Made by a program: the position numbers and the translations under genes
Shown: positions 20,262 through 57,901 of the stretch, in pieces
Numbering within the stretch: the stretch's first letter is position 1
Layout of the letters: every line of letters starts with the position of its first letter
The notes under the pieces: model-generated
What the model was told of the DNA's origin: nothing
Seen by the model: the letters and a program-made list of their open reading frames with translations, nothing else
Database searches by the model: none
Assembly: GCA_964438895.1 (NCBI GenBank)
Contig: CAYTMJ010000006.1
Coordinates: 12,100 to 76,099 of the forward strand
Direction of reading: 5' to 3'
Origin: an uncultured Syntrophobacterales bacterium
Lineage (GTDB): Bacteria > Desulfobacterota > Binatia > UBA9968 > JAJDTQ01
DNA length: 64,000 nt

Positions 20262-22310
20262 TTAGACTAGGAGCGGTGCGATGACTAACGAAACCACTGA
20301 CATGAGCTTAATCAGGATGTTCATTGACGGTCCGGAGGTATCCTTCAAGGGATCACCAACAGTATCACCGACCACGGCCGCCTTGTGTGCTTCGCCACCC
20401 TTCTGCTCGTTCTCAAGATCACCGCGCTCGATAAATTTCTTGGCGTTGTCCCAAGCGCCACCAGCGTTAGACATGAAGAGCGCTAACAACACGCCCGAAA
20501 CCATCGCCCCGGCTAGTGTCCCACCCAAAGCCACCGGGCCCAGCGTTAACCCCACAACCACCGGCACAATCACCGCCACCAGCCCAGGCAACACCATCTC
20601 CTTGATAGCCGCGCGGGTAGAAATGTCCACGCAACTCGCTGCGTCGGGCTTGACCCCCTCGCGACCTTCCAGCAACCCGGGGATCTCACGGAACTGCCGG
20701 CGTATCTCGTCAATCATTCGTCCGGCTGCCCTCCCCACCGCGGTCATAGTCATGGCTCCAATGAGATACGGAATCAGGCCACCAATGAACAGGCCCACCA
20801 CTACCTCCGGGGAGGTCACCAGGATCTGAATCGGTTCTCGCCCCACCGCTGCTAGCTCGGTGTCCACCGTTCTCGTGTAGGCCGAGAATAGCGCCAATGC
20901 AGTCAACGCCGCCGACCCGATCGCAAAACCTTTGCCAATAGCCGCCGTAGTATTGCCCAACGAGTCGAGCCCGTCAGTGATCTTCCTCACCTCGGGACCC
21001 AAACCGCACATTTCGGATATACCACCAGCATTGTCAGCGATAGGGCCGTAGGCATCGACACTCATAGTGATACCCACCGTAGCCATCATCGCGACCGCCG
21101 CCATACCGATCCCATAGAGCTGAGCTGCACCGTGGGACACCCAAATGGCGACTGCAATCACCACGACCGGCGCCGCAACGCTCTCTAGACCCACGGCAAG
21201 ACCGTGAATGATGTTGGTGGCGTGACCAGTGCGGCTAGCCTCAGCAATGCGCTCCACCGGCTTTGCGGAAGTGTAGTACTCCGTAATAAGACCAATGAAG
21301 ATGCCACCCAACGAACCCGCAAGTACCGCCCAGAAGACGCCGATGGAAACTCCGTAGGAAAGAATGAGCGCCAGCGCTGCCCCTAGAAATAGTACCGTAG
21401 TAAGGACGGTAGCACCCCGCAATGCCGACTGCGGATCAATCTTCTTGAACACTCGCATGGAATAGATCCCCACCACCGAAGCAATGAGTCCTAATACTGC
21501 TAAGATCAGCGGTAGCGCCATCAATGTGGCCCGCGAAGCTTCTCCGGAGACCGAAAACAATCCAGCTAGCCCGTTAGGTGTAATAGTACTAGCGATAGCG
21601 ATGGATGCAATCACGGAGCCCACATATGACTCGAACAGGTCCGCGCCCATGCCAGCGACGTCGCCGACATTATCCCCGACATTGTCCGCGATCACACCAG
21701 GATTACGCGGATCGTCTTCTGGGATTCCCGCCTCGACTTTGCCTACGAGATCGGAGCCAACGTCCGCGGCCTTAGTGTAGATACCGCCGCCGACGCGGGA
21801 GAACAGTGCGATGGAACTGGCGCCCATAGCGAACCCGCTTATGTACTTAGCGTTCTGTACGTCACCATAGAGCAGAAACAGTACGCCCACACCCAAGAGA
21901 CCAAGGCTTGCGACTGAGAGACCCATCACTGACCCACCGTTAAAGGCCATGAGTAGCGCCGCCGCCTGGCCACTCTCCGCAGCCGCCTGAGAAGTGCGTA
22001 CGTTCGCCCGGGTGGCCGCTTTCATGCCGAGGAAGCCGGCGATAACCGAGCAAATTGCTCCCCCGAAGAACGCTAGAGCGGTGGCGACTCCGAGCTGCCA
22101 TGCCAGTAGCAACGCAACGACCACGACAAACACCGAGAGCACGGTGTACTCACGCCTCAGGAACGCCATGGCCCCCTCGTAAATGGAGTCACTCACGGAC
22201 TGCATTTCCGCATCCTTGACTCCCACTTTGACAATCGAGCGATAGACCCCGTATGCAATGAGTAGTCCAACAGCACCCAGCACGGGAGCCCAGACCGCTA
22301 AACCATCCAT
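20262..22310 (-). CDS. hppA: Membrane-bound H+(or Na+)-translocating pyrophosphatase (V-type PPase)
   Basis: Multi-TM product with conserved GGG..AAD..GDNVGD and DVGADL motifs. ATG at 22310 after a perfect AGGAGGTG Shine-Dalgarno. The ORF-track N-terminal extension is rejected. Confidence 0.9.
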
Positions 22311-22320
22311 AACACCTCCT

Positions 22321-22887
22321 CTATTGAAGTCGGTTGAAATCTTCCATAGCCTGTGCCGGGCCCTTGAGCACGATTGCACCCACTGCCTCCCCGGCCTTCC
22401 GCAAAACACCGTCCAGTGGTTCCTGTTCCTCGGGCGAGAACCGGTTCAGCACAAAGTCCACAGGGTCTATGCCTGCAGGTGGACGTCCGATCCCAACACG
22501 CAGTCGAACGAATTCACGGTCAGCTACGTACTGCAGGATGGACATGATACCCCGATGCCCGCCCGCCGAACCGCCACAACGAATCCTAAGGCGCCCGAAG
22601 GGCAGATCTAGGTCGTCGTAAACCACCAATAAGTCCGCTGCCTGGATCTGAAAACGTTTCACTAGCGCCGCCACCGCGAGGCCACTATTGTTCATGTAGG
22701 TCTGCGGCTTGGCGAGCACTAGAGTTTCCTGATCCCACTGGCCCCGACCTATTAATGACTCGCTCCGCTCGTCGGTGACGTGGATGGCCCGAGCATCGGC
22801 GATTTGGTCCAGCAACATAAACCCGAGATTGTGTCGCGTGCGTTCGTATCGCCGACCCGGGTTGCCCAAACCCACTAGCAGCTTCAC
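22321..22887 (-). CDS. pth: Peptidyl-tRNA hydrolase
   Basis: LLVGLGNPG...[10 protein letters not shown]...NNSG...GGHRGI motifs. GTG at 22887 after GGAG. The track extension would overlap rplY. Confidence 0.85.
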
Positions 22888-24677: not shown

Positions 24678-24752
24678 TGGCTGGGCGGGAAGGATTCGAA
24701 CCTTCGAATACCGGAACCAAAATCCGGCGCCTTACCACTTGGCGACCGCCCA
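24678..24752 (-). tRNA. tRNA-Gln (anticodon UUG), 75 nt with encoded CCA
   Basis: Reverse complement gives TGGGCGGTCGCCAAGTGGTAAGGCGCCGGATTTTGGTTCCGGTATTCGAAGGTTCGAATCCTTCCCGCCCAGCCA. It folds with a 7-bp acceptor stem, a CCGGA/TCCGG anticodon stem with loop TTTTGGT, and a GAAGG/CCTTC T-stem with a TTCGAAT loop. Confidence 0.9.
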
Positions 24753-25998: not shown

Positions 25999-27090
25999 TC
26001 ACCACGGCTTGATCAGCGCCTTGGTCGGGAACATCTCCGGAATCTCGCCACCTACGGCCTGGATGCACTTTTCAGTCTCGTCCAGGGAGAATACGTGGCT
26101 CACCATCTGTTCCACCGGGAAGCCGGTAGTTTCCATCAAGCGGAGGGTGGCATCAATGGCATCGTTGTCGCCAACATATGCTCCCTGAATACAGATCTCG
26201 CCCCATACCAACCGATCCATGAGCATGGGCGTGACCGTATTGTCACCCGTCAGTCCGCCAAGGACCAACTTTCCCTGCCGCCGGAGACAATCCACTGAGG
26301 TACGGATGGCGTTCGGATTTCCTGAGACGTCCACTACCACGTCGGCCATGGCGCCGTCAGTTTCCTCTCGAATAACGTCTACAACGTTTTCCTTTTCAAC
26401 GTTGATTGTACGATGTGCACCGAACTGTTCAGCCACTTCCAAACGGTTCTTGTCGCGCCCTATACCGGCAACAAAGATCCGGGCGGCGCCAGCATGCTTC
26501 GACGCGAAAGTGCACGCCAGGCCTTGCTGACCCGGTCCCTGGATCAGAACATAATCCCCCATCTTGACGCCACCACGGCGGAGTGCCCACTGAAACCCGT
26601 TGGCCATCACCGCTCCGATAAGGGCTGCGGCTTCCGGCGGAAGCTCATCGCTGATTCGGGTGAGTAGCGCGGTGGGTGTGATGTATAGGTACTCAGCAAA
26701 ACCACCGAAGAGATGTGGCGGGTCCGCAGACGACATCCTCGAGCCGTAGGCCGAACGGCGCTTACAAAACCGGTCACCGCCACGCCGACAGTCCGCGCAA
26801 CGGCCACACCCGAGGGATCCCTTCAGTATCACACGGTCGCCTTCCTTGACGCCATGAATCTCAGCCGCCCTGGCACCTAACTTCTCCACCCTCCCCAATA
26901 TCTCGTGGCCCAAGATGATCGGTATCGGTAAGTTGAGCTTACCGGTGTAATATTTATAGTCTGTACCGCAAACCCCACCCATCTCCACCTTCAGCAGTCC
27001 CCCGTCTGGCGGAACCTCCGGTACCGGGTATTCCCGAACCTCAATCTTGCCAGGCGCTACTAAGGTCGCCGCTCGACACGTTGTACTCAT
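25999..27090 (-). CDS. Zn-dependent alcohol dehydrogenase (MDR superfamily), paralog 1
   Basis: GGVCGTD...GHE catalytic-Zn motif, structural-Zn CGRCADCRRG..C, GPGQQGL Rossmann fold. ATG at 27090 (GGGAG Shine-Dalgarno). Confidence 0.8.
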   Translation of the reverse strand: MSTTCRAATLVAPGKIEVREYPVPEVPPDGGLLKVEMGGVCGTDYKYYTGKLNLPIPIILGHEILGRVEKLGARAAEIHGVKEGDRVILKGSLGCGRCADCRRGGDRFCKRRSAYGSRMSSADPPHLFGGFAEYLYITPTALLTRISDELPPEAAALIGAVMANGFQWALRRGGVKMGDYVLIQGPGQQGLACTFASKHAGAARIFVAGIGRDKNRLEVAEQFGAHRTINVEKENVVDVIREETDGAMADVVVDVSGNPNAIRTSVDCLRRQGKLVLGGLTGDNTVTPMLMDRLVWGEICIQGAYVGDNDAIDATLRLMETTGFPVEQMVSHVFSLDETEKCIQAVGGEIPEMFPTKALIKPW

Positions 27091-27348
27091 GAAGTCACTC
27101 CCCACCCCGTTGTCAACCAGGACCCTCACCAACCAGACATGCGTCGCGTCGTCAAATCGTGGGACCCTCTATGAGTAGCGCGGCTAACATCATGGGTGTT
27201 CAACGACAGTCCGCGGTGTGATTCACGGTCCCGATCAGCCGCCCGTTGCTTACAGGACAGAGTGCCACAGCCACGGCAAAACCACCCACCGACATCAGGA
27301 CTTCGCCCGCGCTACTCGCGATCCACAATATGCGTACACCACAACCGC

Positions 27349-28437
27349 CTAGGGCTTGATCAGCGCCTTGGTCGGGAACATCTCCGGAATCTCGCCACCT
27401 ACGGCCTGGATGCACTTTTCAGTCTCGTCCAGGGAGAATACGTGGCTCACCATTTCCTCCACAGGGAACCTGGTAGCCTCGATAAGCCTCATAGTGGCCT
27501 CCACCGCGTCATTGTCGCCAGTGAAGCACCCCTGCAGCTTGATCTCACCCCACACGAGCTTATCCATGTGGACCTCGGTCACCGTCTTATCACCGGTAAG
27601 ACCAGCCAACACCATAGTCCCCTGGCGACGCAGACAATCTATAGACGCGAGAATTGCCTTGGGGTTCCCGGACACGTCCACTACCACGTCGGCCATGGCG
27701 CCGTCGGTTTCCTCTCGAATAACGTCTACAACGTTCTCATTCTCTACGTTAATGATCCGGTCAGCGCCCCACTTCTTCGCCAGCTCCATCCGGGGGGCGT
27801 CGCGGCCGATGCCGGACACGAATATCTTAGCCGCACCCGCGTGCTTCGACGCGAAGGTGCACGCCAGGCCTTGCTGGCCCGGTCCCTGGATCAGAACATA
27901 ATCCCCCATCTTGACGCCACCACGGCGGAGTGCCCACTGAAACCCGTTGGCCATCACCGAACCAATCAGGGCCGCCGCCTCGGCAGGGAGATCGTCGCTA
28001 ATCTTGGTCATCAGCACGTCCGGCGCCAGATAAAGATAATCGGCAAAGCCACCGAACAGGTGGGGCGGATTAGCGCTAGTGGTACGCCCACCATAGTTAG
28101 TTCGATTTCTGCAGAACCGTTGCGCGTTACGCCGGCAATCGTTGCAACGACCGCAACCAATGGCGCCCTTAAGGATAACGCGGTCACCTTCCTTTACTCC
28201 GTGGATCTGCGCCGCCTTGGCACCGAGCTTGTCTACCCGGCCTAGGATCTCGTGGCCAAGTATGATCGGAAGGGGCAGATTGATCCGCCCATGGTAGTAC
28301 TTCACGTCCGAACCACAAACTCCCCCCATCTCCACCTTGAGCAATCCGCCATCGTCGGGAATGTCGGGTATGGGATATTCCCGGATCTCGAGCTTGTTGG
28401 GAGCAAGTAACGTTGCCGCCCTGCTTGTCTGTCCCAT
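27349..28437 (-). CDS. Zn-dependent alcohol dehydrogenase (MDR superfamily), paralog 2
   Basis: About 75% identical to paralog 1 with the same motifs. Strong Shine-Dalgarno AAGGAGGT. Confidence 0.8.
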   Translation of the reverse strand: MGQTSRAATLLAPNKLEIREYPIPDIPDDGGLLKVEMGGVCGSDVKYYHGRINLPLPIILGHEILGRVDKLGAKAAQIHGVKEGDRVILKGAIGCGRCNDCRRNAQRFCRNRTNYGGRTTSANPPHLFGGFADYLYLAPDVLMTKISDDLPAEAAALIGSVMANGFQWALRRGGVKMGDYVLIQGPGQQGLACTFASKHAGAAKIFVSGIGRDAPRMELAKKWGADRIINVENENVVDVIREETDGAMADVVVDVSGNPKAILASIDCLRRQGTMVLAGLTGDKTVTEVHMDKLVWGEIKLQGCFTGDNDAVEATMRLIEATRFPVEEMVSHVFSLDETEKCIQAVGGEIPEMFPTKALIKP

Positions 28438-35625: not shown

Positions 35626-37842
35626 TCAATCCTCTCCTAAAAAGCGGGCGAACCGCTCGTAGAGTTCGCGTAGTCTGGCTTTATAGTAGTCTACATTCTC
35701 GTCGGGGCTCGCAGGGTCCCACTCAGACACATTCCGGCAATTCGTATTCACCATGACGTTGGCACCTTGGCCTACGACGTAGTAGGAAATCTGGTCCCCC
35801 GATAGGTAGTTGCGTTCCGAGCGCAACGCCACCTCGTAGGCACCCCTGGGATGCTGCTTCCCTCCCTTAACTTTCATCTGGTAATCGTCCAACGATTCAC
35901 GCAAAGTTTCGATCCGCTTCAAAAGCAGCAGGTCCAAACGGTGGCTGCCAATCGCGTCGCGATACCGCTCGTACAGTGCTCGGACCTCGTGGTCACGCCC
36001 GTTGAACAGGAGCATCAGAATTTGCTGCAGCCACTCGCGCCGGTAGCGTTCAAGCCCACGTGGGCTTAGATCAGAGCCAACAACGATTTGTTGGTCGTGT
36101 TCGTCCAGCAGCGCATAATTCCCCGGGGCATAGCAAAAGATCGCCCGGTATTGGGCGACTGGAAACTCCACTTTCCGGGGGAATAACGATGCCACCTCCA
36201 CCCTTAGGGCAGCCTCCTCCTGGGCTCGGGAAACCCCCGCAGGAGGTACGACGTATATGCCGTTAGCATCCACGGTAACCATGCGGTGCCCGCGCTGATC
36301 GAACCACCCCACCAGCTTCTTGGTGTGTTCATCCGCAGCTTGCGTTACGAACTCCGCCACACGAAAATCGTTGAAGTGGCCAGTTGCACACACCAGGTAG
36401 TCGTGGAAGGAGTCCATCAATACCTTGAGTCCTGACCGGATCGTCCCAACAATCCGGTTATCGTCCCCTATCAGGGATGCGTTGTCGCACTGCCCGCCCC
36501 GTTCCCACAGGTCCCTGACCCCCCCCAAAAGAGCCGAAAAGATTCCGAGGTCATCGGTCTCCGGACGACAATCGAGGTCCAGCATTACAGCCGCATGGAG
36601 TGACGTAACGTCGCAATGCAGCACTGGCCGTGACACACCCTCTACCTCCAGGGTCGCGTACTTCTCCGCAACCGGCGCTGCAGCTAAGGGGGAAGGTATC
36701 GAATGGCCTTGAGCCGAGTATTCTCGAAGCATGAGCCGATCAATCTTTGTCGGCTCATTCGTAAGGGCCGTGTCCTGGAAACTATATGGAAAGATCTGGG
36801 CCTGAACAAAATAGTTGGGGGAGAGCACCGCCGAAATCTCTCGAGTTTCACGAACGTCGTCAAGTGCGTAATGAAACAGTGTCTCTGGATCGTGATCAAA
36901 ATACCAACTCGCTTGGTCACCCGGGATGTACGTCCGCTGGGGCGCTGCAACACCGAAATGGCGAGCAACATCCTTGAGACCATTGCGCCTGAGCTCGCGA
37001 TTCACCAGACTGTAATACTGAGCGAGGAACCAGGTATCGATGACGTGGCGACCGTAGATACTATAGTAGGGATACGGAATAACCCGATCGCCAACTTGGA
37101 ACCGCGCCTGACGATGCCGAAGCACGCTACCGTCCCTACCTACCCTCAGATCCACGTCATACCGTTGGGCTCGCTCGTCGATGTAAGGCAGGTCGAAGCG
37201 AAAGATGTTGTGACCCTCGATAACGTCTGGGTTGCGATCGCAGATTTCCCGGGCCATTTCGGCCAGCATCTCGGCCTCTTCGTACTCCCTACCGGAAATG
37301 AGACGTTCCCAGCCGCTACTGTCTGACATTGCGATAGCGGTGATACGGTCGCCTTCTCGTAGCGGATTGGGAAACTCGAAACCATTCGTCCGATACACCT
37401 CCAAATCTATCTGCATGCGCACGAGTTGATCGAAACCCAGGCCAAGAAAATGTGTCATTCCCGACCGCAGAAGAAATTGCTGCACGGGATCGGCGAGAAG
37501 AAAATGCGAAGCCCCGTGAACGCCAGGCCTCCTGCCACTCCTACGTTGGAGGTAAGACTTCGCCGACTCCATGCTTTCTAGATCGGGAAATCGCACCATG
37601 AAACGGAATGTACGGGTTCCCGACAGCGGATCAATTTGGCAAGAACCTTTCCACCCGGCAATCCTCTCCTCGGAGGTGAGCCAGAAAAACGGCTCGAACG
37701 GAAGAACTGCCGAAACCACCGTTCCTGAATCCCGGGAGAAGATTCGGATCTGGCGACCCCCCTCTGGCTCCAGAGCCACTATCGCCGGGGTCGTATCCGA
37801 GCCGAACAGTAAGGGAGTATATTTGGGGGTCATATCGCACAT
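35626..37842 (-). CDS. Family-B (Pol II-like) DNA polymerase homologue with intact 3'-5' exonuclease motifs and degenerate polymerase motifs
   Basis: Exonuclease motifs are intact: Exo I ...MQIDLEVYRTNGFEFPNP..., Exo II GHNIFRFDLPYI, Exo III FHYALDDV. Polymerase motifs are degenerate: motif A CDVTSLHAAV (consensus DxxSLYPS), motif B KVLMDSFHDYL (consensus KIMMNSFYGVL), motif C TVDANGIYV (consensus YGDTDS) and a KKRY-equivalent GNYA. Motif order and spacing match E. coli Pol II. Confidence 0.6.
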   Translation of the reverse strand: MCDMTPKYTPLLFGSDTTPAIVALEPEGGRQIRIFSRDSGTVVSAVLPFEPFFWLTSEERIAGWKGSCQIDPLSGTRTFRFMVRFPDLESMESAKSYLQRRSGRRPGVHGASHFLLADPVQQFLLRSGMTHFLGLGFDQLVRMQIDLEVYRTNGFEFPNPLREGDRITAIAMSDSSGWERLISGREYEEAEMLAEMAREICDRNPDVIEGHNIFRFDLPYIDERAQRYDVDLRVGRDGSVLRHRQARFQVGDRVIPYPYYSIYGRHVIDTWFLAQYYSLVNRELRRNGLKDVARHFGVAAPQRTYIPGDQASWYFDHDPETLFHYALDDVRETREISAVLSPNYFVQAQIFPYSFQDTALTNEPTKIDRLMLREYSAQGHSIPSPLAAAPVAEKYATLEVEGVSRPVLHCDVTSLHAAVMLDLDCRPETDDLGIFSALLGGVRDLWERGGQCDNASLIGDDNRIVGTIRSGLKVLMDSFHDYLVCATGHFNDFRVAEFVTQAADEHTKKLVGWFDQRGHRMVTVDANGIYVVPPAGVSRAQEEAALRVEVASLFPRKVEFPVAQYRAIFCYAPGNYALLDEHDQQIVVGSDLSPRGLERYRREWLQQILMLLFNGRDHEVRALYERYRDAIGSHRLDLLLLKRIETLRESLDDYQMKVKGGKQHPRGAYEVALRSERNYLSGDQISYYVVGQGANVMVNTNCRNVSEWDPASPDENVDYYKARLRELYERFARFLGED

Positions 37843-37939
37843 GATGGATCAACCTGCGAGGGATCATCGTGACGAAACCGGGACCCCATCGACCTTCTAC
37901 CAGATCTGGTACTGCCATGAACAGATGTGCTAAAGAATA

Positions 37940-38728
37940 ATGATGGCATCCGAAGCCGTGTCCCATATTCGCCGCCCCCGTTTGCGACAACCATTTCTCA
38001 TCTTGTCGTTCTCAGGTTGGAGCGATGCGGGGTCCTCGGCCACCTCCGCGGTCCGCTATCTGATTGAGCAACTACTAGCCTCTGAGTTGGCCAAGATCGA
38101 TCCGGAAGATTACTACGACTTCTCAGTACAACGGCCGCATGTGCGTTTGGTGGATGGACAGCGGGAAATCGAGTGGCCCTCCTATGATTTCCACTACTAC
38201 AAGTCAGGGGGCGAATTAGAACGGGATTTTATCTTCGCTTCTGGGGTCGAACCCCACTTACGTTGGAAGTCTTTCTCCAGCACCCTGTTACAGCTCGCGC
38301 AAGAGTGGAACGTCACACGGGTCATCACTCTAGGGGCCCTTCTTGACGAGGTTCTCTACACCAAGCCAGTACCTCTGAACGGTTCCTCATCCGACCCAGA
38401 ATTAATGAAGGAGCTCGACTTCACGCCTTCCCAGTACCAAGGGCCCACTGGCATCGTCGGGGTTTTGGGGGACACCTTCCGCAAGGAAAGCATGCCACAC
38501 GTAAGCCTCTGGGCTGCGCTACCGCACTACCTGGCGCTTTCTCCAAACCCGCGCGGAACCCTGGCGCTAGTACTACGCCTCACACAATGGCTCGGGATCC
38601 GCATTGACACGGGCCCCTTGGAACGTGCCGCCGGTGAATTTCAGAATAAAGTCAATGAGGTGGTCGATAGCGACCCCAACCTCATGGCTCTGGTGCGGGA
38701 GCTTAAGAAACACGAGTTCGAACAATAG
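37940..38728 (+). CDS. PAC2-family protein (proteasome-assembly-chaperone-like fold)
   Basis: N-terminal ...FLILSFSGWSDAGSSATSAVRYL... matches the PAC2 G-W-x-D-A-G signature. 262 aa. No obvious Shine-Dalgarno. Confidence 0.6.
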   Translation: MMASEAVSHIRRPRLRQPFLILSFSGWSDAGSSATSAVRYLIEQLLASELAKIDPEDYYDFSVQRPHVRLVDGQREIEWPSYDFHYYKSGGELERDFIFASGVEPHLRWKSFSSTLLQLAQEWNVTRVITLGALLDEVLYTKPVPLNGSSSDPELMKELDFTPSQYQGPTGIVGVLGDTFRKESMPHVSLWAALPHYLALSPNPRGTLALVLRLTQWLGIRIDTGPLERAAGEFQNKVNEVVDSDPNLMALVRELKKHEFEQ

Positions 38729-38924
38729 TGGAAAAGGCATTTACGCGGAAACCACCATCGCTTTTCAGCCTTATGGCGGAGATGCAACCCACCGTCAACC
38801 CCGTTTGGTGTCCTCCGAAACTGACAAACCCGAGGAAACGTTCACCGAACTCAACTGCAAAATTAGGAGGTCTTTCACCAGTGGAACCGATTGCCCAAAC
38901 AAACGAAACTGCCGGCCCGCAAGC

Positions 38925-39200
38925 ATGATTACCCAACACGTCGGGGAAGCGGCCCTCCCGGACCTTGAGGCGTGGGCCAACGATATTATTCAGTCCGAGG
39001 ACAATACGGTCAAGGCGGTAGAGTCCTATCACGACGCAGATTCAAATACGTACGTAATCCGCCTGACCCGATACGCCCGCGTGTTGCTCTTCCGCCTGTC
39101 CGAAGCCCAAGTTCACAACCCTGCACGGAACTCCGAATGTGAAAAGACCCTACGAAACCGAGTGAAGGAAGTGCGTCATCTGTTGGGAACGGTCGGATAA
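38925..39200 (+). CDS. Hypothetical small protein (91 aa); uncertain gene
   Basis: ATG at 38925 within a long ORF that overlaps the PAC2 3' end out of frame. No motif identified. Confidence 0.2.
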   Translation: MITQHVGEAALPDLEAWANDIIQSEDNTVKAVESYHDADSNTYVIRLTRYARVLLFRLSEAQVHNPARNSECEKTLRNRVKEVRHLLGTVG

Positions 39201-39228
39201 CTCGCCCCGATCCCGCGTGGACGCGGTG

Positions 39229-51995: not shown

Positions 51996-52024
51996 TTGCA
52001 TACCATACATAAGTCTGTTATAAC
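51996..52024 (+). promoter_or_regulatory. Candidate lexA promoter: TTGCAT, 17-nt spacer, TATAAC; the predicted start site is near the ATG (leaderless)
   Basis: Hexamers at 51996-52001 and 52019-52024. Only 6 nt separate the -10 from the ATG at 52031, and there is no Shine-Dalgarno. Confidence 0.35.
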
Positions 52025-52030: not shown

Positions 52031-52633
52031 ATGACACCCCTCACTCCACCGGGAGAAACCCGGGAAAAAGTTTACCGATTCGTGCGCAAAAAGATCCTAG
52101 AGGAGCTCCCACCCACGGTGCGCGAGGTCCAGGAAGCGTTTCGGTTCAAGGCCGTGCAGACGGCCCGACAACATCTCGAGCGCCTAGTAGCCGAAAAGCG
52201 ACTAGCCAAGGTTCAAGGGAAATCTAGAAGCTATCGACTGCCCCGGGAACCCGGAACACTATTCATACCTTTACTGGGACGAGTGCAAGCGGGTGGGTTA
52301 CAAGCGGCCATCGAAGAATGCGAGGGTTATATTCCGGTCCAATTACGAGGCTCGGCGGAAATGTTCGCTCTCCGAGTCCAGGGGGAGAGCATGATCGGAG
52401 CAGGCATCCTTCCAGGGGACATTGTCGTCGTGAGACGGCAGACGGAAGCTGTTTCAGGGGACATTGTCGTAGCCTTAGTGGGCGATGAAGCCACCATCAA
52501 GAAGCTTCGCCTACATCGGAATGGAATCGAGTTGCATCCAGAGAATCCAGCCTTTGCACCAATTATTCCGAAAGCCGATACGTGCACCATTCTGGGCAAA
52601 GTGGTGGAAATAAGACGCTATCTAGAGAGGTAA
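52031..52633 (+). CDS. lexA: LexA repressor (S24 peptidase)
   Basis: N-terminal winged-helix region. Ala-Gly cleavage site region. Catalytic Ser/Lys (GESMIGAGI...K). 200 aa. Confidence 0.9.
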   Translation: MTPLTPPGETREKVYRFVRKKILEELPPTVREVQEAFRFKAVQTARQHLERLVAEKRLAKVQGKSRSYRLPREPGTLFIPLLGRVQAGGLQAAIEECEGYIPVQLRGSAEMFALRVQGESMIGAGILPGDIVVVRRQTEAVSGDIVVALVGDEATIKKLRLHRNGIELHPENPAFAPIIPKADTCTILGKVVEIRRYLER

Positions 52634-53281
52634 ATGGACGCTTTCACCGAAAAGATACGTAACCAGATTCGGGTTCCGGTCACCGCCTCCACGACGATGC
52701 AAAGCCAATCCGTTCACGAGACCCCAAGGGCCTGGAACTTTTCCTTGCTGGCAGGACGTCTCACGGAGATTTCGGACTCGGGCGCAGCTCCCGCGCTTAC
52801 AGCCGCAGCCTCCCTAATCCTCCAAGCCCAGCAGCATGGTGAGCCCGCAGCATGGATAGGTTTCGGTAACTCCACCTTTTTCCCGCCGGACTTAGTCGAG
52901 TGGGGTATTGACCTCGAAGCCTTGCCGGTGATCCGCGTCCCTAACGCCCTCGCCGCATCCAGTGCCGCCGACCAACTGTTGCGCTCTGGAGCTTTTGGGC
53001 TGGTAGTGTTGGACCTCAAAACCCAGACACAGATGAACATGGCAGCGCAAAGTCGTCTGGCAGCACTAGCCCGCAAATATCATTCGGCGCTCCTCTGTCT
53101 CACTCGTAAAAAGACAGGGGCACCTTCAATAGGACCTATGGTATCGCTTCATGGCGAAGGAAGGATCTCAAGAACTGCCTTCAGCCGCTTTGACTGGGAG
53201 ATCCGTATCCTCAAGGACAAACAGGGAGCTTCGGGATGGAGCCATACGGAGTCGTGCCATGGAACGGATGGCCTGTGTTGA
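52634..53281 (+). CDS. imuA: ImuA-like (RecA/SulA-fold) protein of the mutagenesis cassette
   Basis: 215 aa. It starts 1 nt after the lexA stop. Position and size match imuA of lexA-imuA-imuB-dnaE2 cassettes. Confidence 0.6.
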   Translation: MDAFTEKIRNQIRVPVTASTTMQSQSVHETPRAWNFSLLAGRLTEISDSGAAPALTAAASLILQAQQHGEPAAWIGFGNSTFFPPDLVEWGIDLEALPVIRVPNALAASSAADQLLRSGAFGLVVLDLKTQTQMNMAAQSRLAALARKYHSALLCLTRKKTGAPSIGPMVSLHGEGRISRTAFSRFDWEIRILKDKQGASGWSHTESCHGTDGLC

Positions 53282-54764
53282 TATTGCAGCTTTTCCGCTG
53301 CAATTGCTACTTTGGGACCACCCAAACTGGAAGGACTATCCTGCCGGGGTGGTAGATCGGGACAAGGCCCAAGGAACCATCCTGTGGGTAAACTCCCGGG
53401 CGCGGGCCACGGGCATCCTCCCGGGCATGCGCTACGGCGCAGGTCTCACGCTATCACGTCACTTCCGAGCAGCTGTCATTTCTCGTACGGTCATCGAAAA
53501 GGCCGTAGCCGATCTCGTTCCGCGACTGCGGCACTTTACCGCAGAAGTCGAACCCTCCCGCGACGAGCCCGGAGTGTTCTGGCTCGACACCTCGGGCCTT
53601 TCCCTGCTCCACTCCTCCCTAGATAAATGGGGCGAGCTCATCCACGATGATCTCACCGAAGCCGGTTTTCGTAACACTGTAGCCGTAGGGTTCTCCCGAT
53701 TCGGTAGCTATGCCGCAGCCAAGGCGTGTGACCGAATCGTGGTCTTCCCCACGCCCCAAGATGAGTGTACCTACATCCGGAAAGTCCCGCTAGAACAGCT
53801 CAATCTCGCTCCCGCGATCCGCGACCTTCTGGCCCAGATCGGCATCCACACCCTTGGCGGATTTTTGGACCTACCTGCATCCCAGGTACACTCGCGTCTT
53901 GGGCGCGAAGCTCATCGGCTCCACCAGTTGGCTGCGGGTAATCTCTGGAGCCCGCTCCATTCCGAGATACCCCCCGATCCTGCCACCACGGGCATCTTCC
54001 TCGACTATCCGGAAGCCGACCGCGGACGGTTGATGGTCCTCATGGAAGAACTATTGGAGTCGCTGCTCGACTCGCTAGAGAAACGGCACGAGATGATGAC
54101 CACGCTCCTCCTCCACCTTCGCCTAGACGACAAGTCGAAAAACACTGAGATCCTTCTTCGGTCAGCTAAGCCTACTCTGAACAAAATACAGGTGCTGGAT
54201 CTTCTACGGCTCCGAATGGAAACCGTAGCGCTAACGGCTGGGGTGACTGAAATTGTCATGGAGATCCAGGGGATCTCACCCGCCTTCTGGCAGGGAGAGC
54301 TTTTTCAGAACCCCCCCGTACGCGACCACGATGCGGCTAACCGCGCCCTAGCACGACTGCGAGCGCGGTTCGGCAACGGCGCGCTCCTACGAGCGCGCCC
54401 ACGCACCGGATATCTTCCCGAAGCACGCTTTGCCTGGGAGCCCATGGAAACGATGCCACCACCTAAGCCGCGTCAAGTATGGCTGCGTCCGCTAGTGCGG
54501 CGCTTTTTCCCCAAACCTCTCCGGCTTAAGGACTCTGAATCACCCGTGGGTGCTACTGAAATCGCAGTTGACGACCCCCAAAACGACGGCAGCTTTTTTG
54601 GCCGGGAGAGCACCGGTCCCTATATCATTTCAGGGGGATGGTGGGGCTCTAGCTCAGGTGTACACCGCGAGTATCACTTCGTTCGCACCGACGAGGGTCC
54701 ATGGCTGTGGATCTACTATGACTCCAAACGGCGCCGCTGGTTCCTACATGGAAAGGTGGAGTAA
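53259..54764 (+). CDS. imuB: ImuB, Y-family polymerase-like (non-catalytic) protein
   Basis: UmuC/DinB-like N-terminal fold (CVDIAAFPLQ...) without the full catalytic acidic triad. About 500 aa. Confidence 0.7.
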   Translation: MERMACVDIAAFPLQLLLWDHPNWKDYPAGVVDRDKAQGTILWVNSRARATGILPGMRYGAGLTLSRHFRAAVISRTVIEKAVADLVPRLRHFTAEVEPSRDEPGVFWLDTSGLSLLHSSLDKWGELIHDDLTEAGFRNTVAVGFSRFGSYAAAKACDRIVVFPTPQDECTYIRKVPLEQLNLAPAIRDLLAQIGIHTLGGFLDLPASQVHSRLGREAHRLHQLAAGNLWSPLHSEIPPDPATTGIFLDYPEADRGRLMVLMEELLESLLDSLEKRHEMMTTLLLHLRLDDKSKNTEILLRSAKPTLNKIQVLDLLRLRMETVALTAGVTEIVMEIQGISPAFWQGELFQNPPVRDHDAANRALARLRARFGNGALLRARPRTGYLPEARFAWEPMETMPPPKPRQVWLRPLVRRFFPKPLRLKDSESPVGATEIAVDDPQNDGSFFGRESTGPYIISGGWWGSSSGVHREYHFVRTDEGPWLWIYYDSKRRRWFLHGKVE

Positions 54765-54769
54765 AAGGC

Positions 54770-57700
54770 ATGGCCACCAGCAAAAAGCGTGCTCTCGGGC
54801 CCACGTCCTATACACCGCTCTACTGCAAGAGTCACTACTCATTCCTCGAGGGTGCGAGCCACCCCGAAGAATTACTGGAGCAAGCCGTAGAACTCGGGCT
54901 CCAGTCACTTTGCCTGACTGACCGAGACGGTATCTACGGTATTGTGCGGGCCCACGTCAAAGCCCGAGAACTGGACCTAAACATAGTCATCGGCGCCCAA
55001 ATAACCATCACCGATGGTTCTTCCATTCTCCTTCTCGCCACCGACGAAGCCGGCTACGCTCATCTCTGCCGCCTGATTTCTACCGGCCGCCTCCGCTCAC
55101 CCAAGGGACAGAGCGCCGTAGAATGGCATGAACTCTATTCCTACGCCGGCGGGCTCCTAGCTCTATGGGGCGGGGAAAACAGCCTACTGGTGCAAGAACC
55201 GGACCCTACGTTTATCGCCCGGGATCTCCGGGATGCCTTCGCCGACCGGCTCTACGCGCTGGTGGCTCGCCATTGCCGCGCGGACGAGGCGCTGCAGGAA
55301 CGGCGCCTACGGGAGCGGGCGCAGCGCTACGGCATCCCCACGGTGGCAACCACGGAAGTGCTCTACCATCACCCCTCGCGACGCCAACTCCAAGATGTCC
55401 TCACCTGCATCCGCCACGAGCTCCCGCTTGTCGACGCTGGGCACACAATCAAACCCAACGCAGAGCATTACCTCAAGTCCCCCGCCGCATTTACGGATCT
55501 CTTCAAAGATGATCCGCAATCGGTCGCCCGCACCCTGGAAGTGGCTTCCCGTTGTGAGTTCTCTCTGGATCAGATCCACTACCGCTACCCTTCAAGGGAA
55601 CTTCCGGGCAGCAAGACCTCCGGGGAGTGGCTTAGGGAACTCGTCTTTCGAGGGGCCAGTAACCGCTACGGCAGTAATGTTCCACAAGATATCCGGACAC
55701 AGCTCGAGCGGGAACTTCAGGTCATCGAGGAGCTAGCCTACGAGGGCTACTTTCTCGCCATGTGGGACCTAGTCCAGTTCTGCCATAGTAAAGGGATCCT
55801 CTGTCAGGGACGCGGCTCCGCAGCCAATTCCGCGGTATGCTACTGTCTAGGCATAACCGCCATCAATCCGGTGCGCATGAACCTGCTTTTCGAGCGCTTC
55901 ATCTCAAAGGAACGAGCCGAACCACCTGACATCGACCTTGACATCGAGCATAACCGCCGCGAGGAGGTCATTCAATATCTCTACCGCAAGCACGGCCGCA
56001 CCCACGCAGCCATGGTGGCCAATTTCATCCGCTACCGCTGGCGTTCCGCAGCCCGAGACGTAGGCAAGGTCTTGGGGCTAGCGGAGACCGCAGTCCACCG
56101 CGTCACCCGGCTGCTGGACCATCACAAGGGAATAGACCGAAAGCTACTCAAAAGCGCGGGTCTCGACCCGCACACCCACGTGGAATACCTCCGCCTAGTA
56201 GCGGAAATCCAGGACTTCCCCCGACACCTGTCCATCCATCCCGGTGGATTCCTACTCGGCCACAAGCCAGTATGCGACCTGGTCCCCATCGAGAACGGCA
56301 CCATGCACAACCGTACAGTGATCCAGTGGGACAAGGAGGATCTGGAAAGCCTCAAACTCTTCAAGGTGGACCTGTTAGGGCTAGGTATGCTGACCGTGGT
56401 AAACCGCTCCTTTCACCTCATCCGAGAACACTGGAATCGGACCTTCTCTCTAACTGCCCTTCCCAAGGATGATCCTGAAACCTATGCCATGATCTGCAAG
56501 GCCGATACTGTGGGAGTCTTTCAGATCGAGAGTCGCGCACAGATGTCTATGCTACCCCGACTTAAACCCCGAGAGTATTACGATCTCGTCATCGCAATCA
56601 GCATCGTCCGACCGGGGCCCATCGTGGGAGGTATGGTACATCCCTATCTTCGCCGTCGGAATGGCGAGGAGGCAGTCTCCTACCCCCATCCCTCCCTGGA
56701 GCCCATTCTCAAAAAAACACTGGGGGTACCGCTGTTTCAAGAACAGGTAATGCGACTAGCAGTTGTAGCAGCAAACTACACCCCCGGGGAGGCGGATCAG
56801 CTTAGACGTGACATGGCCGCCTGGAGAAGATCGGGAAGGCTCGAGCAACACCGGGAACGGTTCATCTCGCGCATGCAGGCCAAGGGAATCGCAAAAGACT
56901 TCGCCACCCAGGTATTCGAACAGGTCCGCGGTTTCGGCGATTACGGGTTCCCTGAAGGCCACGCCGCTAGCTTTGCCCACATCGCCTACGTATCAGCATG
57001 GCTCAAGCGCCACTATCCCACGGCCTTCGCCTGTGCGCTACTCAACGCCCAGCCCATGGGCTTCTACGCACCAGCCACTATCATAGACGATGCCAAACGG
57101 CATGGAGTCCACGTGCTACCGATAGACATCCAGAGCAGCGACTGGGACTGCACCCTCGAGAAGAAAACCAGCAGGCAAGCCTCTGTCCTTCCAGTCCATG
57201 CCCTACGCATGGGTCTGCGCTACGTGAAAGGGCTCGGGAAGGCCGACTGGCAGAGCATCGACAACGCCCGACGTACCGGCTCGTTCCGCTCCCTGGTCGA
57301 CTTTGCCTCTCGCACCGGACTACGACAGGACATCCTCGACCGCCTGGCCCAGGCCGGAGCGTTAGCCCTACAAACGCCCCAGCGGCGCCAGGCCCTCTGG
57401 CAAGCCCAAGGGCTCCACGCGACCAGGGGCAACACCCTACCCCTCGAAACCCCCGAGGTGCTGTTTCCTTTCGAACCCCTGAGCGACTTCGAGTCCGTCC
57501 TCTGGGATTACCACGCCACCAACCACAGCCCCCGCGACCACCCGCTGGCCCCCCTGCGTCCCCAGATCGCCGCCCAGAGCCTTCCCGACGCCGCCACCGT
57601 TCAACAGATGTCCCACGGCCAACGCGTAGACTACGCTGGTATAGTCATCTGCCGACAGCGTCCCAAGACCGCCAAGGGCATCATCTTCATGACTCTCGAA

Positions 57701-57901
57701 GACGAAACCGGTTTCGTCAACGTCATTCTATGGCGCGACATTTATGAGCGGTTCCGGGTTACCGTTAAGACCCTTTCGTTCGTGGGTGTAAGCGGCCGCC
57801 TACAAAACGAATCCGACGTCGTCCACATTACTGCAGAGTCGGTATGGCAGCCGAAACTGGAGGTAGAACCGGTGCGGAGGAAGAGCAGAGACTTTCAGTA
57901 G
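54770..57901 (+). CDS. dnaE2: Error-prone DNA polymerase III alpha-type (DnaE2/ImuC)
   Basis: N-terminal PHP domain (YTPLYCKSHYSFLEG), polymerase core, OB domain. 1043 aa. Confidence 0.9.
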   Translation: MATSKKRALGPTSYTPLYCKSHYSFLEGASHPEELLEQAVELGLQSLCLTDRDGIYGIVRAHVKARELDLNIVIGAQITITDGSSILLLATDEAGYAHLCRLISTGRLRSPKGQSAVEWHELYSYAGGLLALWGGENSLLVQEPDPTFIARDLRDAFADRLYALVARHCRADEALQERRLRERAQRYGIPTVATTEVLYHHPSRRQLQDVLTCIRHELPLVDAGHTIKPNAEHYLKSPAAFTDLFKDDPQSVARTLEVASRCEFSLDQIHYRYPSRELPGSKTSGEWLRELVFRGASNRYGSNVPQDIRTQLERELQVIEELAYEGYFLAMWDLVQFCHSKGILCQGRGSAANSAVCYCLGITAINPVRMNLLFERFISKERAEPPDIDLDIEHNRREEVIQYLYRKHGRTHAAMVANFIRYRWRSAARDVGKVLGLAETAVHRVTRLLDHHKGIDRKLLKSAGLDPHTHVEYLRLVAEIQDFPRHLSIHPGGFLLGHKPVCDLVPIENGTMHNRTVIQWDKEDLESLKLFKVDLLGLGMLTVVNRSFHLIREHWNRTFSLTALPKDDPETYAMICKADTVGVFQIESRAQMSMLPRLKPREYYDLVIAISIVRPGPIVGGMVHPYLRRRNGEEAVSYPHPSLEPILKKTLGVPLFQEQVMRLAVVAANYTPGEADQLRRDMAAWRRSGRLEQHRERFISRMQAKGIAKDFATQVFEQVRGFGDYGFPEGHAASFAHIAYVSAWLKRHYPTAFACALLNAQPMGFYAPATIIDDAKRHGVHVLPIDIQSSDWDCTLEKKTSRQASVLPVHALRMGLRYVKGLGKADWQSIDNARRTGSFRSLVDFASRTGLRQDILDRLAQAGALALQTPQRRQALWQAQGLHATRGNTLPLETPEVLFPFEPLSDFESVLWDYHATNHSPRDHPLAPLRPQIAAQSLPDAATVQQMSHGQRVDYAGIVICRQRPKTAKGIIFMTLEDETGFVNVILWRDIYERFRVTVKTLSFVGVSGRLQNESDVVHITAESVWQPKLEVEPVRRKSRDFQ

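Follow-up and report, generated by a model that had tools for sequence, protein, structure and literature searches.

A family-B DNA polymerase homologue of Candidatus Binatia with an intact exonuclease site and degenerate polymerase motifs

We analysed a stretch of 64,000 nucleotides from an uncultured Syntrophobacterales bacterium (GTDB class Binatia; contig CAYTMJ010000006.1), hereafter "the window", and in particular a gene on its minus strand coding for a homologue of the family-B DNA polymerases (PolBs) in which the motifs of the proofreading exonuclease are intact and those of the polymerase are degenerate. The open reading frame (ORF), with an ATG start, lies at 35626..37842 and encodes 738 amino acids, exactly as in an earlier sequence-only reading of the same DNA, in which the product had been described as a Pol II-like enzyme that had lost its polymerase motifs.

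The gene and its two active sites

The whole gene, its domains and its motifs are arranged as follows; omega is the ratio of nonsynonymous to synonymous substitution rates (dN/dS), and "canonical" refers to relatives in which the polymerase motifs are conserved.

35626..37842, minus strand: whole gene, G3-type PolB homologue, exonuclease motifs intact and polymerase motifs degenerate (ORF, PF03104, AlphaFold2/Foldseek, about 40 orthologues)
37438..37842, minus strand: N-terminal domain, residues 1-135 (approximate; limits from the alignment to archaeal PolBs)
36808..37437, minus strand: 3'-5' exonuclease (DEDDy) domain, residues 136-345 (PF03104; omega 0.12; 79/96 canonical-invariant columns kept)
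36043..36807, minus strand: palm/fingers, residues 346-600, with relaxed constraint and charge inversion (omega, column retention, net charge)
35629..36042, minus strand: thumb, residues 601-738, moderately constrained, with low AlphaFold2 confidence at 644-708 (omega 0.20, pLDDT, four K/R lost)
37393..37416, minus strand: Exo I, MQIDLEVY (D146, E148), invariant in all 141 sequences examined
37183..37215, minus strand: Exo II, GHNIFRFDLPY (N212, D217), with GHN and not the GWN of the Pol II-like clade (motif table, alignment)
36844..36870, minus strand: Exo III, YALDDVRET (Y325, D329) (motif table, alignment)
36580..36621, minus strand: motif A, LHCDVTSLHAAVML (canonical LHCDVTSLYPSIML), with D411 kept and the steric-gate Tyr replaced by His (PDB alignment, motif table)
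36391..36429, minus strand: motif B, LKVLMDSFHDYLV (canonical FKILINSFYGYLG), with N477D, Y480H and G481D (PDB alignment, motif table, column retention)
36247..36279, minus strand: motif C, VTVDANGIYVV (canonical IEVDTDGIYFV), with D527N and Glu523 replaced by Thr (PDB alignment, motif table, column retention)
36106..36138, minus strand: KxY (KKRY-equivalent) motif, FCYAPGNYALL (canonical FSYKMKNYALL), with both lysines lost (PDB alignment, motif table)

The sole Pfam match of the protein is PF03104, the PolB exonuclease (E-value 3e-10), and no match of the window protein to PF00136, the polymerase domain, was found in the Pfam scan. A phmmer search against all PDB sequences gave full-length alignments to archaeal PolBs, the top one being that of Pyrobaculum (5mdn, 2.4e-18). 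The fold prediction that the sequence-only reading had proposed as a check agrees with this: the AlphaFold2 model built from a 71-sequence alignment (pLDDT 82, pTM 0.82) has a complete PolB fold, low confidence being confined to residues 450-461 and 644-708, and Foldseek against the PDB retrieved archaeal PolBs over about 790 alignment columns (E-value 1e-31, TM 0.72-0.77). The best TM was obtained with the P. abyssi PolB in "edition mode", a conformation to which we give no weight. The order of domains expected for the superfamily (N-terminal, DnaQ-like exonuclease, palm, fingers, thumb) is present according to the model, the structural matches and the profile search of the PDB (E-value 6e-42).

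The exonuclease site is conserved throughout. The residues D146, E148, D217, Y325 and D329 are invariant in the 71-sequence alignment, as is N212, so that the DEDDy signatures (Exo I DxE, Exo II Nx2-3(F/Y)D, Exo III Yx3D) are all found and the three proofreading motifs are indeed canonical, as had been read from the letters. In a motif table of 141 sequences, all the members of the clade formed by the window protein and its orthologues (the window clade) keep Exo I (DxE), Exo II (NxxFD) and Exo III (YxxxD). Judging from these residues, the window protein probably retains 3'-5' exonuclease activity.

The polymerase site presents a very different picture. In the phmmer alignment the earlier assignments of motifs A, B and C are in register, with DVTSLHAAV falling on DFSSMYPNI of the archaeal PolB, KVLMDSFHDYL on KVMANAMYGYL and VDANG on GDTDS. 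The KKRY motif had been assigned to GNYA and has to be moved, A-PGNY-A being aligned with A-KKRY-A, that is, PGNY takes its place; since the motif in this family is K-x-K-N-Y, both lysines are lost in the window protein. Relatives about 50% identical carry SLYPS, KILINSFYGYLG, DTDG and K-x-K-N-Y-A in exactly these columns, and the alignment revealed no canonical polymerase motif near the degenerate ones in the window protein. A shift of the motifs with canonical residues close by, which the earlier reading had named as a finding that would overturn it, is therefore not what was found, the motifs being in register, the substitutions limited to the polymerase half and the pattern shared by about 40 orthologues. 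In terms of the signatures of an active enzyme, DxxSLYPS, Kx3NSxYG, the second Asp of DTD and the KKRY/KxY lysines are represented by DVTSLHAA, KVLMDSFHD, DAN and APGNY. Of the two motif-C Asp residues, it is the second that PolBs conserve (PMC7544198).

The motif table is binary. All the canonical relatives have invariant SLYPS, K-ILINSFYGYLG, DTDG and K-x-K-N-Y-A-L-L, whereas in the window clade the polymerase motifs are degenerate in all members and differ from one member to another: motif C reads DAG, DAN, DPG, DAA, DAR, DGG or ESG, the place of the motif-B Asn is taken by Asp, Glu or Arg throughout, the motif-B Lys is missing in about eight members, the motif-A Asp is substituted (by Glu, Gly or His) in several, and both KxK lysines are absent in every one. 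The motif-A His and the motif-C Asn are additional changes of the window lineage, the clade norm being ALYPA and DAG. Thus, the degeneration does not reflect sequencing error, as it extends over about 40 orthologues, within which the Tyr-to-His change and the motif-C Asn are specific to one lineage. Taken at face value, these replacements mean that polymerase activity has very probably been lost.

Family, orthologues and selection

The label "Pol II-like" given by the sequence-only reading designates the wrong subfamily. According to Kazlauskas et al. 2020 (PMC7544198), G1, the Pol II-like clade, is defined by "GWN" in Exo II; G2 is recognised by its having lost both Exo I and Exo III, and the mark of G3 (Pol-epsilon-N-like) is a motif-C Glu conserved two residues before DTD; phage-borne G3 enzymes are those of Salinibacter and Nostoc phages only. 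An assignment to E. coli Pol II and G1 was rejected in view of the Exo II motif (GHN, not GWN) and of the three NCBIfam Pol II models, on which the window protein scores 33-52 bits (cut-offs 570-1435) with matches confined to the exonuclease region, the best being 52.5 bits against a cut-off of 570; its canonical relatives, with 50-107 bits, are also under the cut-offs. G2 and archaeal PolB2 are ruled out by the intact and invariant Exo I and Exo III. The family profile, compared with the PDB, finds archaeal B3/B1-type PolBs at an E-value of 1e-42, E. coli Pol II only at 3e-18, and the Pol alpha, delta and epsilon enzymes between 1e-16 and 1e-10.

The G3-signature Glu is carried by all the canonical sister sequences (IEVDTDG) and is replaced by Thr523 in the window protein and by T or A in its clade; since all canonical sisters possess it, this Glu is ancestral to the lineage and was secondarily lost in the clade. 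Moreover, tblastn of the canonical sequence P0035 against 50,697 phage records gave Salinibacter phages on top (38% identity, 98% coverage, 6e-134), followed by Nostoc/Anabaena phages, and in the trees the window clade is nested with sequences of the P0035 type. The GHN of Exo II, the canonical I-E-V-DTDG and the order of the phage matches therefore place the family in G3.

This group is the second most abundant bacterial PolB group and is "experimentally uncharacterized" according to a 2026 survey (PMC12926913), which describes it as having conserved polymerase and exonuclease active sites and a clamp-binding motif; Binatia lie outside the set of complete cultured genomes of that survey. The position of the motif is not given by that source, and a candidate for it is the N-terminal F-x-x-N-E-V-L-F-G, which is invariant in nearly all the canonical relatives and of which the window clade keeps only L-[FY]-G, the tail of the window protein reading K-Y-T-P-L-L-F-G (alignment, column counts). 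Some canonical G3 members, such as P0055 and P0061, are extended at the C terminus and finish with NLDLFG, a sequence similar to the QL[SD]LF beta-clamp motif and a further candidate.

A search of 5.8 billion proteins yielded 3,946 relatives. The closest 29 clusters (59-70% identity) are all about 738 residues long and match Pfam in the exonuclease only, and relatives at about 51% identity and below match both PF03104 and PF00136. Altogether, the pattern of intact exonuclease and degenerate polymerase motifs is common to about 40 orthologues of 59-70% identity, all of them from uncultured Candidatus Binatia. The genome scan, with one genome per species, returned 20 loci, of which the ten closest (62-68% identity) all belong to metagenome-assembled genomes (MAGs) of uncultured Candidatus Binatia, two of them carrying the older labels Thermodesulfobacteriota or Syntrophobacterales; among the ortholog-bearing genomes there are several closed chromosomes, 3.6-5.7 Mb in size. 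Canonical relatives were found in other Binatia, in "Deltaproteobacteria" MAGs and in Methylomirabilota, those from Binatia and Methylomirabilota being 45-51% identical to the window protein. A single PolB locus per genome was returned, which speaks, weakly, against a second, canonical PolB in these genomes.

The surroundings of the gene are fully syntenic in 10/10 genomes and form a chromosomal housekeeping block. In one direction lie hemB, hemD, hemC, hemA and a gene for cytochrome-c assembly, in the other the genes for a Urate_ox_N-like membrane protein, for a cytochrome c and for a flavoprotein resembling glutathione reductase. Few genes of this block evolve as fast as the PolB-like gene, with 62-68% identity between genomes against 75-95% for most neighbours. 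A PAC2-family gene is adjacent to it in the window; in other Binatia (loci L010-L013) the canonical PolB, too, has a PAC2 gene upstream, at a distance of 1-7 kb, and the same is seen on the contig of the canonical sequence P0030, from which we infer that the degenerate gene is the in-situ orthologue and not a stray paralogue. In bootstrapped neighbor-joining (NJ) trees the degenerate clade is monophyletic (100/100) and its sister is P0030 (100/100), whose motifs are fully canonical, which indicates a single inactivation event inside Binatia.

Selection has acted differently on the two halves of the protein. Pairwise Nei-Gojobori (NG86) estimates from the 11 clade sequences with available DNA give an overall omega of 0.24, made up of 0.12 in the exonuclease, 0.33 in the palm/fingers and 0.20 in the thumb; the corresponding values at the canonical loci are 0.11, 0.14 and 0.13, and close pairs (dS 0.26-0.45) present the same pattern among domains. 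The columns that are invariant in 98 canonical sequences tell the same story: the clade keeps 79/96 in the exonuclease, 29/46 in the thumb and 38/109 in the palm/fingers, where 34 of the 109 are completely replaced. The gene is thus maintained, with an exonuclease domain constrained as in active relatives and palm/fingers relaxed about 2.5-fold.

The loss is also directional. Twelve conserved basic residues of the palm/fingers have disappeared (R361, K450, R454, R462, K502, R504, K515, K572, K574, R584, K588 and R593), as have four of the thumb (16 in palm, fingers and thumb altogether), and acidic residues have been gained at 357, 362, 363, 477, 497 and 515, the net charge of the palm/fingers passing from +1.3 in canonical sequences to -5.3 in the clade; the N-terminal and exonuclease domains have each become about 5 units more positive. 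The retention of DNA binding, which the sequence-only reading had predicted, is thus a mixed matter, the loss of the 16 basic residues speaking against it and the more positive N-terminal and exonuclease domains in its favour. Some residues are newly fixed in the clade (K394, S404, P561, C570, Y600, R601, Q663 and L680), which, together with the directional change, argues for a new constraint on the palm/fingers and not for mere decay.

The same state has been reached elsewhere in the family. An exhaustive HMMER search of 1.84 billion cluster representatives produced 1,729 matches, the best 150 of which were classified according to the five DEDDy residues and three polymerase residues. Among the 131 of these that are full-length, both sites are intact in 68, only the polymerase in 31, only the exonuclease in 15, and neither in 17. 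The G3-like PolB family (P0128-P0276) appears, accordingly, as a mosaic of activity states, where the literature has both G3 sites conserved. For eight sequences (P0129, P0149, P0150, P0152, P0195, P0274, P0278 and P0279), re-alignment and pattern searches found Exo I-III kept and no polymerase motif anywhere.

In the trees (where two bootstrap figures are given, the second was obtained without the columns of the palm/fingers), the window clade has P0129 (48% identity) as its deepest branch (100/100 and 88/100), P0150 and P0195 group together (100), P0274 pairs with the canonical P0241 (89-100) and P0149 groups with P0152 (82-91); all the sequences with intact exonuclease and dead polymerase were recovered as one group in 0/100 bootstraps. 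Since these lineages group separately, the state has arisen at least four times, in the window clade and in at least three others, and such a recurrence speaks for an exonuclease-only function on which selection can act. In P0129 the motif-A Asp is gone and the second motif-C Asp kept, the reverse of the main clade, with which P0129 shares the loss of the KxK lysines, the change of N477 to an acidic residue, Y576H and G484A. As the two differ in their carboxylates, the substrate- and primer-binding residues were probably lost first and the catalytic carboxylates later and independently.

One of these lineages has a context of its own. At the two P0274 loci (L102 7210-11104; L103 3357-7251) the PolB-like gene is the second of a three-gene unit with overlapping stop and start codons, preceded by an MBL-fold hydrolase (Lactamase_B_2) and followed by an ABC-type ATPase (ABC_tran, weak AAA_21). 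This unit looks like a dedicated DNA-processing or possibly defence module, in a context unlike that of the window gene.

A predicted exonuclease on a polymerase scaffold

On the whole, we consider it moderately likely that the window protein is a G3 PolB derivative that has lost polymerisation and would still work as a 3'-5' exonuclease on a polymerase scaffold, in extrinsic proofreading or in the processing of 3' ends. The proposal of a pseudo-polymerase with a retained exonuclease site, already made from the sequence, finds support in the motifs, in the about 40 orthologues, in the domain-specific relaxation and in the predicted fold.

Family-B enzymes distribute the 3' end of the primer between two sites, that of the polymerase and that of the exonuclease, and the KKRY lysines, the Lys, Asn and Tyr of motif B and the arginines of the fingers stabilise the primer terminus and the incoming deoxynucleoside triphosphate (dNTP) in the former. 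In the window clade the residues predicted to hold dNTP and primer terminus are lost and the polymerase cleft would have turned acidic, so that a bound 3' end should default to the exonuclease site. The preservation of this site and the more basic exonuclease and N-terminal side might allow primer-template to be bound in a default editing mode, which would make the protein a constitutive "editing-mode" enzyme for the trimming of 3' termini that are mismatched, damaged, blocked or unextendable. The likeliest role would be proofreading in trans for another polymerase, or the clean-up of 3' ends in repair; as a statement on the specific cellular function, this is tentative. It is compatible with the idea that E. 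coli Pol II, which reportedly exchanges with Pol III on the clamp, backs up the fidelity of the latter. It also fits the remarks of the recent survey that, where DnaQ and PHP proofreaders are absent, some lineages "may use noncanonical proofreaders", and that all Chlorobi carry a G3 PolB (PMC12926913).

Several points weigh against this interpretation. Asp411 and the first motif-C Asp are kept in most members and N477 has mostly become acidic, so that an unconventional metal site may exist; PolB2/Dpo2, which had also been predicted to be inactive, does polymerise (PMC8764526). The loss of the four conserved basic residues of the thumb could weaken the duplex binding that editing needs, and the degradation of the putative N-terminal clamp-binding-like motif (F6 and N9 lost) weakens the version of replisome-associated proofreading. 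Finally, the neighbourhood is one of haem biosynthesis and redox housekeeping, with no repair partner, and no LexA box lies upstream of the gene either in the window or in the orthologous loci.

Among the alternatives, the one that survives best, improbable as we consider it, is that of an inert scaffold or regulatory pseudo-enzyme, similar to the C-terminal half of Pol epsilon, to ImuB or to poxvirus F12, in which the exonuclease motifs would be structural. There are well-known cases of inactivated PolBs that play a structural role (PMC2669801, PMC4304020), the newly fixed clade-specific residues suggest new interaction surfaces, and PAC2 is a conserved neighbour. However, the exonuclease site is degenerate as well in all the known scaffold-type inactivated PolBs, whereas here none of the five DEDDy residues varies among about 40 clade members or across four independent lineages with dead polymerase sites, and the omega of the exonuclease domain equals that of active enzymes. 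Nor is the retention of the exonuclease automatic, both sites having decayed in 17 of the 131 family members.

Slightly less probable still is a DNA polymerase working through a non-canonical active site, perhaps as a low-efficiency extender or a translesion synthesis (TLS) enzyme. This would fit the motif-A Asp and the first motif-C Asp kept in most of the clade and the consistent acidic gains at 357, 362, 363, 477 and 497, and it has precedents, PolB2 being active (PMC8764526) and piPolB working with a single motif-C Asp (PMC7544198). The Asp missing from piPolB is the first one, though, and that lost here is the second, conserved one; besides, no alternative constellation of residues is conserved, the members differing in motifs A, B and C, all the lysines and arginines that bind dNTP and primer are lost, the palm/fingers omega is 2.5-fold that of canonical relatives, and PF00136 no longer matches the domain.

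That the protein belongs to an anti-phage defence system or a mobile element, its exonuclease degrading foreign DNA, is very unlikely, even though G3 PolBs have phage relatives and one of the independent lineages, that of P0274, has its PolB-like gene in an operon of overlapping genes, together with those of an MBL-fold hydrolase and an ABC-type ATPase. The window gene is part of a housekeeping block (hemABCD, glutathione-reductase-like, cytochrome c) syntenic in 10 genomes, its composition is unremarkable, no integrases, repeats or defence genes were found near it, and PADLOC returned only noise, in the form of generic DEDDh and intein-PolB matches (2e-5 and 8e-5); the possible defence role put forward by the sequence-only reading is therefore not borne out. 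A decaying pseudogene or an assembly artefact, which the faster evolution of the gene relative to its neighbours might recall, can practically be set aside, given intact ORFs of about 738 residues in at least 40 sequences from independent assemblies, closed chromosomes included, the low overall and exonuclease omega, and motif states common to the clade.

The predicted editing enzyme can be compared with several known systems. Its fold, length, domain order and exonuclease motifs are identical to those of the G3 PolBs, from which its clade differs in the loss of the polymerase motifs, of the signature Glu and of the N-terminal F..N residues. With E. coli Pol II, an accessory and non-essential bacterial polymerase with a presumed back-up proofreading role, it has in common the membership of family B and a DEDDy proofreading domain; Pol II, however, is an active polymerase of the GWN type, distant from the window protein by profile, and the window gene has no SOS box. 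PolB2/G2, the C-terminal half of Pol epsilon and poxvirus F12 also keep the PolB fold under selection with degenerate catalytic motifs, yet in them either the exonuclease site is lost, Exo I being not conserved and Exo III missing in PolB2/G2, or both sites are, so that the polarity of the window protein is reversed. The ImuB protein, a Y-family polymerase homologue that has lost catalysis and is kept for another function, has no nuclease and acts as an adaptor. An analogous case, in which the nuclease has likewise outlived the polymerase, is bacterial PolX1, whose polymerase site is inactivated and whose PHP 3'-5' exonuclease is active, with a suggested role in processing the DNA intermediates of repair; PolX-like proteins without the polymerase domain have been described too (PMC12926913). 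The two are not homologous, PolX1 combining family X with PHP and the window protein family B with a DnaQ-like DEDDy domain.

In bacterial polymerases, exonuclease sites are generally less conserved than polymerase sites (PMC12926913), and inactivated polymerases have usually lost proofreading or both sites; in the literature we found no description of a natural PolB with intact exonuclease and dead polymerase. The clade represents, in family B, the reverse polarity, a lineage-wide and selection-maintained loss of synthesis with the editing site fully kept, which has recurred at least four times in the group. It offers a handle on the function of the uncharacterised G3 group and bears on the question of whether PolB-scaffolded exonucleases act as extrinsic proofreaders in bacteria, and a naturally "exo-locked" PolB could help to study how the primer terminus is partitioned between the two sites. 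A much bolder idea, to which we give little credence at present, is that G3 PolBs in general are chiefly retained for their exonuclease, as stand-alone trans proofreaders or 3'-end editors for replicative or mutasome polymerases. If this were true, they could include the "missing" proofreader of lineages without functional PHP or DnaQ, such as the Chlorobi, and the Binatia clade and the at least three other lineages with dead polymerase sites would be natural separation-of-function mutants revealing that role.

Neighbourhood and regulation

The features that surround the gene or were examined in connection with its regulation are listed below.

37940..38728, plus strand: PAC2-family gene, divergent neighbour (PF09754, 5e-54)
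37843..37939, no strand: 97-bp divergent intergenic region with the conserved blocks TAGCAYAYCTGTTCAT and ATCTGKTA and the palindrome TACCAGATCTGGTA (footprinting, 11 loci)
35648..35669, minus strand: terminator-like hairpin and T-tract over the last codons of the gene (consensus scan, weak)
52031-57901, plus strand: cassette lexA-imuA-imuB-dnaE2 (NCBIfam)

The head-to-head arrangement with the PAC2 gene described in the sequence-only reading is confirmed, with a gap of 97 bp. PAC2 is adjacent in all 10 orthologous loci (86-91% identity). This adjacency, conserved within Binatia and absent from the Methylomirabilota loci, is uninformative as to a functional link between the two genes, the whole block being syntenic. 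The block TAGCAYAYCTGTTCAT (reverse complement ATGAACAGATGTGCTA), at 37915-37935, lies directly upstream of the PAC2 start in most genomes of the clade and is found at orthologous positions in loci L001-L009 and L020; it may serve PAC2 or the PolB-like gene as a promoter element or as the site of a regulator. The perfect 14-bp palindrome TACCAGATCTGGTA, at 37898-37911, is specific to the window. It has the half-sites of the LexA box found in related cassettes (TACCAGAC-AAAA-GTCTGGTA) without the 6-nt centre, a likeness that is probably coincidental, because the palindrome results from a window-specific deletion and its halves are about 90 nt apart in other loci. At the other end of the gene, the terminator-like hairpin and a separate sigma-70-like promoter (11/12) of the downstream gene make the monocistronic organization that had been proposed weakly plausible.

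The mutasome that the sequence-only reading had placed about 15 kb away is present as a cassette, which also includes lexA and lies at a distance of about 14.2 kb. The cassette lexA (TIGR00498, 147 bits) and dnaE2 ("error-prone DNA polymerase" model, 1339 bits) are above their cut-offs, and the imuA-like ORF at 52634-53281 reaches only 29 bits on the ImuA models, whose cut-off is 150; as this ORF overlaps the longest imuB ORF by about 130 nt, the true start of imuB is probably later. From 21 related cassette-lexA loci (10 distinct promoters; L022-L042), whose LexA orthologues are 51-86% identical, we derived a distinctive LexA box, AACAGACATATGTCTGTT, which these loci share in front of lexA; it has a CAGAC-N4-GTCTG core and is different from both the E. 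coli (CTGT-N8-ACAG) and the Gram-positive (GAAC-N4-GTTC) boxes. In a position weight matrix (PWM) scan it has a single match in the 64-kb window, at 52002-52019 (23.7 bits), before lexA. Upstream of the PolB-like gene no such box was found in the window, in the 10 orthologous or in the 9 canonical loci, the best PWM scores being -2.5 in the window and at most 7.3 in the orthologous loci (95th percentile of the null 6.3), and SOS control of the gene is rejected on this basis, as regards the cassette-derived box, since a second LexA may use another. No genomic, regulatory or co-occurrence link between the gene and the mutasome was found beyond their lying in the same 64-kb window.

Rfam and tRNA scans gave nothing relevant near the gene. 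Between PAC2 and hemB there is a gap of 500 bp (38729-39228), with no Rfam match and only dubious overlapping ORFs at 38604-39200 (plus strand) and 38703-39032 (minus strand). At 25999-27132 and 27349-28437, on the minus strand, two tandem paralogues of the zinc-dependent alcohol dehydrogenase family lie beside UbiD-like decarboxylase and amidohydrolase genes, and further upstream a tRNA-Gln (24678-24752, minus strand) and a H+-pyrophosphatase gene (20262-22409) complete an ordinary housekeeping context.

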